From an uncultured Acidobacteriota bacterium (lineage in GTDB: Bacteria; Acidobacteriota; Polarisedimenticolia; JACPZX01), in the NCBI GenBank assembly GCA_964568735.1, contig CAZMRF010000003.1:36454-100453 (forward strand): a stretch of DNA of 64,000 nucleotides, read 5' to 3'. The notes beneath the pieces are model-generated. The model saw only the letters and a list, made by a program, of their open reading frames with translations, was not told the DNA's origin and did no database searches. The translations under genes were made by a program, and so were the position numbers. The first letter of the stretch is position 1; every line of letters starts with the position of its first letter. Shown piece by piece: positions 27,209 through 40,111 of this stretch.

Positions 27209-30200
27209 TCAGCGGACCGGACCTCGGTGATAGACGTCCGCGGCGGAGTTGCAGTCGTCGACGAGCAGGCTCACCGAGGGTGGGGACCAGGTCACCCATC
27301 GTCCCCCACCCGACAGCGGGCGCCGCGCGCAGGGTCCGCCGATCGGTCCGGGGTTTTTCCCACCGTTCCAGATCGACCCCAGGACGTAGGGATGGTTGAT
27401 GTCGCCCTGCAAGAAGCCCACGAGGACCTCGTCACTGACCTCCGGGATTGAGTAGTAGCCACGCTCCTTGCCGGCCGAGAGGATTGAAATCCGGGCCCAG
27501 CAGCTCTCATCCGAGCCGCATCCCCCCGAATGGTCCCAGGGGAACTGGACCTTCACGCGGCCATAACTGAAGGGATCCGTCCCGATGACGGGGGCAATCG
27601 CGGTCACGATGCCGGTCTGGACACCGAAGATCTTCGGCACGGGTGTCGATCTCAGTGGCCGGTAGGCCGCCCACGTGAAGAGAATGGGAGTGGACTTGCC
27701 GGTCTGGCTCTCCGTGTCATCCACCTGCACCTCGTATCCGATGCGCGGGGCGAGGCGTGTGACGAAGGCGAGGTCGGACTCCCTGTACTGCACGCAGTGG
27801 TCCGCCGCCGTGTTGAGCGAGATGGTCTCTCCCTGGGGCTTCACGACATCGAGATAGGGGATGGTCGAGCAGAAGGCCTCGGGCGAGCTGCCTCCTCCGC
27901 CGAAGGTCACACGTGCCAGCGGTGAGAGCCCCGCCCCGCTCACAGAGACCCCCGTCCCCCCGAGCCAGGTCCCATCGACCGGCGATGTTGAGAGGGCGGA
28001 CGGGGATGGAAGATACGTGTAGGCGCCCAGGCGGAGAGCGCCCAATCCGCCGGGATCGACGACCTCCACCGCGGCGGGCCCCTCGAGGGGGCGCGATACG
28101 GGATTGTTCCCGGAGTAGGTGTAGCCGTTGCCCAGGGACGATTCGCCCTGCTCTCCCTGCGTCCCCTGACGCGCGGTCGATCGGCCCGAGCGGGAATCCA
28201 GATAGAGCCCGACGGCGCGCGGCCCGGCAACCGAGCCGCCCGGATCGTGGAGCGTGCCCGTGCTTGTTTCCCTGTCGTTCAGCTCGACGAAGTTGGTGGT
28301 GTAGAACCCGGATTCGGGGTCGAGCCTGTAGGACTTGAAGAGGAAGGGGTTCCCGATCTGCGAGCCGGGGAGGGGGGCGTTGATGGGAGGCGGGCCGAAG
28401 ACCTGCACGCCGCCGTAGTCCTCGTACTTGTACTGCTCGACGACGCTCCCGGAGGCATTGGTCACCTTGCGGATGCTTCCCAGGTCGTCGGCGTGGAAGA
28501 AGTACTCCTGACCGCCGCGGGTCATCTCGACGATCGACTGGATCCCCGTGCCCGGCACGTAGGTGGCGAGCGTGGTGCCGGATCCGTCCTGCGCCTCGAT
28601 GTCGATCCCGACGTAGTGGAAGTCGCGGGTGATCATCGCGCCGTTGTTCTTCTCGAACCGGTGGCCGAACCAATCGTATCCATATGTCGTCATGAGGCCG
28701 GCCCCGACGTTCGTGTGGCGGACCAGCTGGTCTCGGTAGTCGTAGGCCATCTGGATCGTCGGACCCCCTCCGGTCGACTGGATCAGGTTGCCGTTCCTGT
28801 CGTAGCTCCGTCCGTCGAAGGGGGTCGTCGTGTACTGGTTCTCCTGGAGGTCGGCGGGCTCGGGAGTGGCCGGGCTCATCGTGTAAAGTCCGGGGTCCGG
28901 CCCGTTGATCACCTCGGCGCGGTTCCCCGCGTTGTCGAGGAGGTACTGGACGGGCGGCTGCGCGGTGCCCGCCACGATCTGCGTCGCCTTCAGGCGGCTG
29001 ATGGAGTCGAAGCCGTGGAAGCGCTGCTCGGGCGGGAAGGCCAGGCTGTCCTGCGCGAATGTCTTGTTGTCCGCCCGATCCCACTGGTAGGCGCGATCGT
29101 CGAAAGCGGCCATGGTGGGGGTCTTGAGGTGCCGGGTTCCGGTGATCCGCCGAGCGCCGTCGTATTGGGGCTCGTACCTGGTGCCGTTGCCATAGCTCAG
29201 ACGCTCGATCCTCGCGGGTCCCACGTACTGGACGGCGGCGATGTCGGCGCCCGGGCCTGCTGGCGCCTCCTCGATCAGGGAGACACGGTTCAAGCCGTCG
29301 TGCGAAAAGACGATGCTCCGGCCCCCCGGATAGGTCAGGCTCTTGAGGTTGCCCATGCTGTCGTGGCTCGCGAGCGTCGTCCGGATGCTCCCCGCCGGGA
29401 GAGGCTGAAGCGTCTCCACCATGACGTTCGAGAGCGAGTCGTAGGCGAGCGTCACCCGCGAGTCGTCGTCCTGTGCGGAGACCACGCGGGAGCCCCCGTC
29501 GTACTGGATCGCCTCCATGGTGGTCCCCAGGACTCCCGGGCCCCGGAGAACGGAGCGGCTCGAAAGGCGGTTCAGGAGGTCATACGTGTTGGTCACGACG
29601 CTCCCGTTGGCGTCGTTCGTCGAGCTGATCTTCCCGTGGATGTTCCACGTCCGCGAGACAGCCGTCCCGTCGGGCATGGTGGTCACCGTGGGGCGGTCGA
29701 GGGAGTCGTAGGACTGTGTGGTGACGTTCCCGTTGCCGTCCGTCCAGCCGATCGCCCGCGAGGACCTGTCCCAGGCCTGCGTGGTCGTGATCGATCCGAT
29801 CGCGGTGCCCCCTCCCTCTCCCGTGTTCGTGAGCGCCCGCACCGCCTGGAGGGGCCGCATGAGGCCGTCATGGCTGTAGCGCGTGACGTTCCCCCGCTCG
29901 TCCGTCCAGACGACGAGATAGCCGTGCGAGTCGTAGGCGGCCTGCCTGGCGTTGCCCAGATTGTCGACGCTTCCGACAGGACGATCGAGGTTGTCGTACT
30001 GGGATGTCGTGACAAGGGTCCGATCTGGATTGCCAAGGTCCGACTTGTCCACTTCCGTGACCTTGCTGACGTTCCCGTTCAGATCGTACTCATAGGTCGT
30101 GAGGTTCAGCCTTGGATCGCGGCTCTCCAGGACGCGATAGGCGTTGTCGTAGGACGCTTGGGTGACGTGGCCGTTGTCGTTGGTGAGAGAGCGGACCTGC

Positions 30201-40111: not shown

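Follow-up and report, generated by a model that had tools for sequence, protein, structure and literature searches.

A 64,000-nucleotide stretch of contig CAZMRF010000003.1 (assembly GCA_964568735.1, positions 36,454 to 100,453; hereafter the window) carries on its minus strand a single 12.9-kb open reading frame (ORF) for a predicted secreted giant of 4300 amino acids (aa). Its product joins a signal peptide, a beta-rich N-terminal module (the N-module), a long cysteine-rich stalk, an RHS/YD-repeat region and a C-terminal tail that derives from a heavily deleted VgrG. The gene is real, intact and accessory. Judged by profile matches and alignments, its architecture is unusual and conserved in a tiny family, and the function we assign to it is a prediction. 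We give an even chance to the reading that this accessory single-gene cassette encodes a surface-displayed or released contact device, teneurin-like, whose C-terminus stays attached.

The features of the locus are listed below by window coordinates, strand and description.

27143..40489, no strand: 13.35-kb segment absent from the syntenic genome, reaching from the stop codon of the MacB permease gene to that of the D12 methyltransferase gene
40112..40489, minus: non-coding region upstream of the giant gene, with GGAGG at 40120-40124 (8-nt spacing to the ATG) and TACAAT within an AT-richer stretch
40022..40111, minus: start codon and predicted Sec signal peptide (aa 1-30), read from the sequence
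37742..40021, minus: family-defining N-module, a beta-rich multi-domain array (aa 31-790), from exhaustive profile search, AlphaFold2 (AF2) and Foldseek
39407..39775, minus: N-module unit 1 (aa 113-235), like the contractile-injection tube family, with a CIS_tube match and the near-invariant motif SLRYTLFLDDGTPVRA
38297..38704, minus: N-module unit 2 (aa 470-605), paralogue of unit 1 by profile comparison, with weak DUF3383 and phage-sheath similarity
37742..37957, minus: PKD-like domain closing the N-module (~aa 719-790), with Foldseek PKD matches at probability 1.0
32582..37741, minus: cysteine-rich region (aa 791-2510), with 24 MopE-type CxGxDNDCDGxxDE motifs, an FN3-like insert, four 'CC' knots and 199 Cys
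33062..36637, minus: core array of 22 consecutive MopE-type units (aa 1159-2350) of three alternating types
28043..32542, minus: RHS/YD-repeat region (aa 2524-4023), with DUF6531 at aa 2524-2579 and a single Cys
28043..28057, minus: DPGGL (aa 4019-4023), sole DPxG[LWF] motif where the RHS core ends, without PxxxxDP context
27212..28042, minus: C-terminal tail of 277 aa (aa 4024-4300), a heavily deleted VgrG by Pfam, NCBIfam, alignments and AF2
27695..27808, minus: gp27/Phage_GPD fragment (aa 4102-4139, beginning DHCVQYRESDLAFVTRL), matching VgrG residues ~146-167
27368..27616, minus: complete gp5/VgrG-type OB fold (aa 4166-4248), by Phage_base_V, VgrG alignment and AF2/Foldseek
27209..27361, minus: last ~50 codons and stop, with no homology, predicted local distance difference test (pLDDT) scores <50 and atypical G+C at the first and second codon positions (0.70/0.66)

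Gene integrity and accessory status

Counted from its first TTG, the giant gene is one open frame on the minus strand at 27209..40219, and the ATG at 40111 gives the 4300-aa product. The first-pass annotation, a note made from the sequence alone, had described a single uninterrupted ORF that begins with a signal peptide, and both points hold. A Shine-Dalgarno site precedes the ATG, and the G+C content at third codon positions (GC3) is 0.81-0.90 across all 300-codon blocks of the ORF and similar in neighbouring genes, in a window whose G+C content is ~68% throughout. An independent JGI contig (L002, 4131 bp) begins within the DPGGL-coding region and matches the tail and its junction with the ABC permease gene downstream, with one substitution. 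The DNA copies of the stalk repeat are 60-84% identical to each other and include one short tandem array and no long exact repeats, so collapse or mis-joining during assembly is unlikely. An exact look-up of the 4300-aa product returned no record. The N-terminus (MARRVLVLRCALALLGLLGTLIIPGNLLA followed by QS) has, judged by sequence, the layout of a Sec signal peptide, with equivalents in the full-length homologues.

The gene is missing from a close relative. On either flank of the gene, contig L086 (GCA_973521125.1) is syntenic with the window at 84-92% DNA identity over shared blocks; in L086 only 42 bp separate the MacB stop codon from that of the methyltransferase, and both the giant gene and its upstream region are lacking. 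Downstream of the giant gene in the window, a convergent MacB-type permease gene ends 62 bp from its stop codon, which leaves no room for an immunity gene, in line with what the first-pass annotation had stated. The locus of the RHS-bearing relative P0046 likewise has a convergent downstream gene, and no gene of a contractile injection system (CIS) or type VI secretion system (T6SS) lies within 20 kb of it.

The cysteine-rich stalk

A regular-expression search for C(D/N)G(L/V)D(N/D)DCDG found 22 strict copies and 2 one-residue variants, confirming the at least 24 repeats that had been proposed for a cysteine-rich region of ~1700 aa. The motifs are mostly spaced 48-65 aa apart, in alternating units of three types, whose lengths are 58, ~60 and ~49 aa and whose Cys counts are 6, 8 and 6, respectively. 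The Pfam model Cu-binding_MopE (PF11617) gives 272 bits in 17 scored stretches. Nearly all cysteines of the protein (199/209) fall within aa 790-2520, and the RHS part has one. An FN3-like insert lies at ~aa 880-990. Two 'FCCDxxCxGxC' knots had been counted earlier; we find three strict CCDxxCxGxC knots (DUF7107; aa 1021, 1124 and 2374) and one variant at ~aa 2470.

The even number of cysteines per unit points to disulfides within units and to folding outside the cytoplasm. Such folding would be incompatible with loading onto a cytoplasmic T6SS, and it makes a surface, adhesin or teneurin-like protein more plausible than a T6SS effector. The first-pass annotation had preferred the same side of this choice, and the signal peptide, the ~199 Cys in even-numbered units and the lack of T6SS genes in the window all support it. 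By analogy with DxDxDG-type repeats, which resemble thrombospondin type-3 and MopE motifs, the region may be a stiff, metal-binding stalk. The MopE motif had also hinted at a myxobacterial origin, for which we found no support; the only named relative is acidobacterial.

The RHS region and its autoprotease signature

The ~1500-aa RHS/YD region that had been described was recovered at aa 2524-4023. It opens with DUF6531 and belongs to the RHS/YD families by RHS_repeat (PF05593, 173.6 bits) and TIGR01643 (117.7 bits). Matches of the RHS part among PDB sequences include Tse15, Tse5 and Rhs cores, and the region is 45% identical over 1659 aa to P0046 and 39% identical to P0044. The NCBIfam equivalog NF041261, for the full-length RHS element core, scores 72.7 bits against a cut-off of 2000; on this sequence measure the window protein is not an enterobacterial-type Rhs element.

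The C-terminal autoprotease site of RHS proteins is PxxxxDPxG[LWF] (bioRxiv 10.1101/2024.02.26.582050). Two DPLGL motifs stand 17 residues apart, the second of which holds the catalytic Asp, an essential residue, and PVxxxxGE is the N-terminal cleavage site of T6SS Rhs proteins (PMC8636562). We compared the window protein with this published consensus by eye. Its core ends in VVDPGGL after EQGESSLGNGYTYSGNNPVSRPLEGPAAVEV, with Pro at -7 rather than -5, an insertion of ~9 residues between NNP and DP, and EQGES where the first DPxGL is expected. No partner DPxGL lies upstream of DPGGL, PVxxxxGE is absent from the protein, and a PDB sequence search with the RHS core end gave no matches. The canonical signature is thus degenerate as far as sequence can tell, and in P0046 both DPxGL motifs are absent. 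The claim that the RHS region ends in a DPxGL aspartyl-protease motif therefore needs amending: the motif is a non-canonical DPGGL that lacks both the first motif and the PxxxxDP spacing, and 277 aa follow it.

A VgrG-derived tail

Phage_base_V (PF04717) matches the tail with 66 bits against a gathering threshold of 23.8 and covers profile positions 2-75 of 75, which makes the OB domain a member of this family. The VgrG models stay below their cut-offs (TIGR03361, 106.7 versus 186.35; TIGR01646, 102.9 versus 121.8). Among 5.8 billion proteins the best relatives of the tail, besides P0002, a fragment of the same gene, are ordinary T6SS VgrGs at 36-47% identity. In alignment with these, the tail shows the hub motif DHCVQYRESDLAFVTRL, then lacks ~155-190 VgrG residues, resumes with the hub end and complete OB fold (VgrG residues ~324-465) and closes with ~50 residues free of homology. 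Neither pairwise nor multiple alignments contain the beta-helix of VgrG, and the last ~50 codons are probably non-native sequence that replaces it.

As the alignments show, the spike OB fold is the only intact VgrG domain of the tail, which falls short of the combination of hub, OB fold and beta-helix by which a full TssI/VgrG is recognised. The deletions and the junk-like last 50 residues show that the tail is vestigial at least in parts. The earlier statement that no PAAR, VgrG or T6SS genes lie nearby consequently stands in part: no PAAR, T6SS, CIS or extracellular CIS (eCIS) family was found among the ~30 other genes scanned in the 64-kb window, but the C-terminus of the protein itself derives from VgrG.

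The AF2 model of the tail has a mean pLDDT of 50, with the first 81 and last 46 residues below 50 and the OB fold alone moderately confident; Foldseek aligns it to VgrG, Afp8 and Pvc8 spikes at probability 1.0. The first 80 residues after DPGGL (27920-28042; aa 4024-4103) are rich in Gly, Ser, Ala and Pro, are predicted to be disordered and align loosely with the N-terminal 145 residues of VgrG; they may be a linker or a further remnant. We also considered a frameshift that would carry VgrG on in a different frame or beyond the stop, but neither tblastn with five VgrGs nor a three-frame translation found anything.

The N-terminal module

An Ig-like region of ~750 aa had been proposed for the N-terminus. 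It is not a plain Ig array: no Ig or Big Pfam family matches aa 31-790, and in their place we find a CIS_tube match, a weak DUF3383 match and a PKD-like fold. Pfam CIS_tube (PF19266) exceeds its cut-off of 27 with 37.3 bits on aa 146-204, where the match spans no more than profile positions 98-155 of 158; the same model gives 48.5 bits in P0044 and 43.5 bits in P0046. The AF2 model has pLDDT ~40-70 over the matching part. Residues 113-193 of unit 1 are 39% identical over 82 aa to a free-standing 142-aa tube-family protein from a SAR202 metagenome-assembled genome (MAG), which has FKCVLESFSLRFTLFLDDGTPVRAVMNA almost exactly as in P0044 and P0046. PDB entry 9gtp_P matches unit 1 with E 0.11.

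DUF3383 matches aa 515-596 in unit 2 weakly (20.7 bits, E 2.3e-4), below its 34.9-bit cut-off. Foldseek aligned the N-module model to the sheath of phage E217 (8fvg_A; probability 1.0, 147 columns, 20% identity) with a target-normalised template-modelling score of only 0.21. As Foldseek gave no query coordinates, we place this match in unit 2 from the DUF3383 position; by the model, at most one sheath domain would be represented in the N-module. An hhalign comparison of unit 1 (aa 95-234) with unit 2 (aa 465-609), at 95.7% probability and E 9e-9, shows the two, at the level of profile similarity, to be paralogues of each other.

The N-module model as a whole is middling (pLDDT 62, predicted template-modelling score 0.32) and matches macroglobulin-type domain arrays weakly. 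K319L-like_PKD matches occur in homologues, and the most distant matches of the profile search cover only the PKD part or the central beta-sandwich part. Conservation within the N-module, judged on ten sequences with 33-46% identity to the window protein, is highest in the tube-like motif at aa 170-189, the FGSAPxLxLG that follows it, and the unit 2 counterpart APxLKLGxANGG.

A small family defined by the N-module

The family was recovered by an exhaustive profile search of 1.84 billion representatives, to which word-indexed searches were nearly blind. A word-indexed search started from the single sequence found P0001 alone (1022 aa, 35% identity at 93% coverage), and a 10-sequence profile likewise brought up one relative, P0194. 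The exhaustive search returned P0044-P0050, ~7 clusters in all. The architecture had been called rare, and it is; the feature that makes it so, the N-module, had been missed. The members are as follows.

P0044, 4131 aa: two N-modules, FG-GAP, cysteine knots, DUF11, DUF6531, RHS (ended by the contig end)
P0046, 3454 aa: N-module, Kelch propeller, DUF6531, RHS, Phage_base_V, gp19-type tube N-terminal strands
P0049, 2547 aa, N-terminus truncated: 53% identical over 2187 aa (N-module and same stalk), then non-RHS repeats
P0001, P0045 and P0047, short forms (P0045 and P0047 ~1020 aa): N-module, extra beta-sandwich, 28-aa OB piece (IPEVDDEVLVAFEHGD..PYIVGSLWN), FN3-like domain
P0048, 794 aa: N-module family member
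P0050, fragment: N-module family member

All full-length members begin with a signal-peptide-like segment, the central parts of the family differ (MopE stalk, Kelch or FG-GAP), and the FN3-like domain of the short forms recurs at aa 880-990 of the window protein. The OB fold, or its last 28 residues, occurs in five other members with 33-46% N-module identity, with the shared signature GD(I/M)xxPY(V/I)xG; P0001 carries a Phage_base_V fragment. A genome scan with a short alignment around the tube motif yielded one family locus (L003, in an Acidobacteriota MAG, with a doubled N-module) and two free-standing tube genes, and the family is probably acidobacterial. A genome-collection scan with uninformative N-terminal patterns gave no match. 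A metagenome scan with the OB segment of the family gave ordinary VgrGs only, at ~50% identity, and no further RHS-OB proteins. The family is small and previously unannotated: the source annotations of P0001, P0194 and P0002 carry no protein name. The P0001 locus has unrelated neighbours.

Several members show variations of their own. The N-module is in tandem in P0044 (aa 30-790 and 895-1700) and at L003:9500-13060; a diverged, insertion-bearing version (RYLLVSGAEAEGGDGTPAEV), intermediate between units 1 and 2, takes the place of the tube-like motif in the second copy. After its OB fold, P0046 has ~65 residues (aa 3385-3454; L089:20150-20365) that resemble the N-terminal strands of T4 gp19-type tube proteins (FFKSVSGLESETEVVDYREGG; Pfam E 0.0049), and the window protein has no equivalent of this piece. 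A strict 'split tube' complementation is less likely for it: the two pieces come from different families (PF19266 for the N-terminal one, PF06841 for the one that closes P0046), and the window protein lacks the latter. At aa 2160-2547 of P0049, the closest relative of the window protein, repeats of the form W.D.R.G.PDI.G.RV...G..LDP.G..I, possibly a propeller, stand in place of RHS and match nothing tested. A permuted OB fold suspected in P0047 (GRVKVQFHWD after the PEVDDEV piece) was rejected, as the string aligns with the first FN3-like strand of P0001 and P0045.

Proposed architecture and alternative readings

We propose that the signal peptide would send the chain through Sec. The 760-aa N-module, with its beta-sandwich, PKD domain and two paralogous domains of tube or sheath descent, would be the cell-proximal or anchoring part and might self-associate. 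The ~1700 aa of disulfide-locked, acidic DxDxDG-type repeats would form a long stalk, probably rod-shaped and stiffened by calcium, at whose distal end the RHS repeats, by analogy with solved RHS, Tc and teneurin structures, would fold into a closed cage. The VgrG-remnant tail, which is not a conventional toxin, would stay covalently attached as in teneurins; this is proposed because the autoprotease signature is degenerate here and absent in P0046. The protein would then act as a surface-displayed device for binding or contact, and neither deliver a cleaved toxin nor serve as T6SS cargo.

Several points weigh against this contact-device reading. The catalytic Asp of the second DPxGL is kept (D4019), and with that essential residue present (PMC8636562) autoproteolysis may still occur. 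A tail of 277 aa (~29 kDa) would fit an RHS cage as a toxin does. Unrecognised toxins are common. The reading offers no route by which a 450-kDa protein would cross an outer membrane, the N-module model is mediocre (pLDDT 62), and the location, cleavage state and metal binding given here for the protein are predictions, as any binding partner would be. The acidobacterial assignment of the family comes from one homologue (L003), and the order of RHS followed by OB fold is known from two complete RHS-bearing members.

A genuine Sec-dependent polymorphic RHS toxin of the WapA or type II secretion system (T2SS) kind is a rival reading that we think unlikely. The cage would hold the 277-aa tail, D4019 would cleave it off, and the tail or part of it would be an unrecognised toxin or membrane-penetrating module, with its immunity gene elsewhere or needless if the target is non-kin. 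The order of export or anchor signal, presentation repeats, RHS and C-terminal domain follows the polymorphic-toxin template (PMC3482391), the core ends in a DPxG[LWF] motif with its Asp, the tail has a size that suits RHS cargo, and the gene is strain-variable, as toxin loci are. However, a recognisable C-terminal toxin and an adjacent immunity gene are both lacking: Pfam and NCBIfam detect no toxin family, and the 62-bp gap to the convergent gene contains no ORF, an arrangement shared by P0046. The tail is moreover a structural spike protein with large deletions, predicted to be disordered outside its OB fold, and the first DPxGL and the PxxxxDP spacing are lost, as are both motifs in P0046.

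It is doubtful, too, that the injection-system pieces are debris. On this view, recombination of an RHS giant with a tube gene and a vgrG (or vgrG-rhs) locus would have left scars that keep the frame but have no function, and the tail, perhaps even the whole gene, would be decaying. The tail does lack ~155-190 internal VgrG residues, part of the N-terminus and the beta-helix, its last 50 codons have atypical codon-position G+C and no homology, the autoprotease motif is degenerate, and a close relative dispenses with the gene. Pure decay is nevertheless at odds with a 12.9-kb frame that is open and of uniform GC3, and with an OB domain that is complete across its profile. It is also at odds with the five other members that have the OB fold or its last 28 residues, with the shared GD(I/M)xxPY(V/I)xG signature, and with the conservation of the tube-like motif among proteins 33-46% identical.

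There is also a bolder reading, which we regard as a long shot. Here tube-initiator-type domains (duplicated), a sheath surface domain and a spike OB domain would have been domesticated in Sec-exported giants of a probably acidobacterial lineage. The N-module and the C-terminal pieces would mediate extracellular self-assembly, by trimerisation or head-to-tail complementation, into a machine-independent 'spike' that presents the RHS cage on a calcium-stiffened stalk. That P0046 ends in gp19-type tube strands can be cited for such self-assembly.

That the protein is instead cargo or an accessory of a T6SS or eCIS, its tube- and VgrG-like parts docking onto a spike or baseplate from another locus of the genome, seems very improbable. 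Three kinds of CIS-related similarity do meet in one protein, VgrG-Rhs fusions exist (PDB 8qja), and in the true injection-system loci of a metagenome scan tube-like similarity sits 1-2 kb upstream of the VgrG OB fold. But the signal peptide and ~199 disulfide-type Cys are incompatible with cytoplasmic assembly, and joining a spike would take a hub and a beta-helix, neither of which the VgrG part has; that part also scores well below the TIGR03361 cut-off. The marks of a T6SS Rhs effector are missing as well: there is no PAAR or prePAAR domain or complete N-terminal VgrG, no PVxxxxGE site and no CIS or T6SS gene in the 64 kb here or the 20 kb around P0046, and a signal peptide stands in their place. 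Finally, the idea that the giant ORF is an assembly artefact joining shorter repeat genes is hardly credible: the contig is metagenome-derived and has a 5-kb internally repetitive region, but the repeat copies are too diverged and too poor in exact or tandem repeats, the 3' junction recurs in the JGI contig, P0049 from another sample is collinear over N-module and entire stalk, P0046 is collinear across the last cysteine knot and RHS core, and codon statistics are uniform.

Neighbouring genes

The giant gene lies among genes for M1 peptidases, an OPT transporter, a GDSL lipase, a MacB-type ABC exporter and, upstream, a D12 adenine methyltransferase. The last (40489-41487, minus), a D12-class N6-adenine DNA methyltransferase gene directly upstream of the giant gene, is also present in the relative. 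The scanned genes, several of them ORFs without a Pfam hit, include no recognisable restriction enzyme, and the methylase may be an orphan. A second indel separates window 18811-22889 from L086 6232-8457: the window has an OPT oligopeptide transporter and a second M1 peptidase paralogue where L086 has a 281-aa protein and an AAA_14/DUF4143 gene, which makes the flank of the giant gene a variable region. At ~45.5-46.7 kb, synteny with L086 (17182-19570, ~92% identity) indicates a class II aldolase, a BMC gene and three EutN/CcmL shell genes according to the annotation of the relative, which we read as a small bacterial microcompartment locus. Genes for a multihaem cytochrome c (6021-7292, minus), a 1356-aa pyruvate:ferredoxin oxidoreductase (9624-13691, minus) and the selenocysteine synthase SelA (53065-54474, plus) point to an anaerobic or facultative lifestyle of the host.

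Comparison with known systems

The window protein shares parts with several known systems. Its OB fold is 36-47% identical to those of T6SS VgrGs, and it keeps the CVQYRESD hub motif of TssI/VgrG and eCIS spikes (Afp8/Pvc8). Unlike TssI/VgrG, it retains ~200 of ~650-700 residues, with an interrupted hub, no beta-helix and scores below the NCBIfam cut-offs. In the tube family (PF19266; LysM/tube-type baseplate proteins such as 9gtp_P), ...WG..f.C...SfslRYTLFLDDGTPVRA... matches the C-terminal two-thirds of the free-standing 142-aa proteins, whereas the window copy is internal to a secreted giant, lacks the first ~40 residues, is duplicated in diverged form as unit 2 and has no CIS neighbours. 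The stalk motif is that of MopE and of myxobacterial 'putative metal-binding motif' proteins (PF11617), and of acidic double-disulfide repeats (NF033662). It is present in 24 copies here, with an N-module before and an RHS region behind, and does not imply the copper binding of MopE itself.

Among RHS proteins, the Sec- or T2SS-dependent toxins (WapA of Bacillus and Streptococcus; the 'SP + RHS' class of Zhang et al. 2012, with signal peptide; PMC3482391) likewise have a signal peptide, long presentation repeats, RHS/YD repeats, a non-RHS C-terminal domain and a strain-variable gene. The window protein differs in having no recognisable toxin or adjacent immunity gene, a degenerate autoprotease signature, a C-terminal VgrG remnant and a family-specific N-module. 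Teneurins too place cysteine-rich repeats before a YD shell in an extracellular protein; their C-terminal domain is not released by the RHS aspartyl protease, and their role is adhesion or contact, not toxin delivery (PMC8636562, PMC3482391). Their repeats are EGF repeats, whereas those of the window stalk are MopE-type DNDCDG units, and the C-terminus here is neither Tox-GHH nor ABD. A Pfam scan of the window protein found no FN-plug, NHL propeller, TTR, ABD or Tox-GHH, and we regard the teneurin likeness as one of general layout, an analogy, with demonstrated homology limited to the YD repeats.

The VgrG-Rhs fusion effector of the Salmonella bongori T6SS (PDB 8qja) also unites VgrG-derived and RHS parts in one polypeptide, and no PDB sequence matches the C-terminal 1831 aa of the window protein better (E 1.1e-27). 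It has a complete N-terminal VgrG, RHS and toxin towards the C-terminus and no signal peptide, whereas the window protein has the order reversed, with a truncated VgrG part as its C-terminal tail. Among solved structures, 8qja is the closest arrangement that combines VgrG and RHS. A limited literature search turned up neither an RHS protein with a spike OB fold after it nor a secreted family whose N-module is tube-like. The N-module offers a handle for finding further members of this unannotated family.

If the tail and the tube-like domains are functional, the gene would clearly exemplify how parts of an injection machine are put to new use outside the cell, and would be a bacterial parallel to the transition from toxin to adhesin proposed for teneurins; if they are relics, it records recombination of RHS loci with vgrG and tube genes. 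RHS cages are known as toxin containers loaded on T6SS spikes, as parts of Tc toxins and as adhesion modules of teneurins. The window protein and its few relatives would add a fourth RHS arrangement, Sec-exported and disulfide-rich, with pieces of injection machinery at its ends, placed where working in the manner of a T6SS is impossible.

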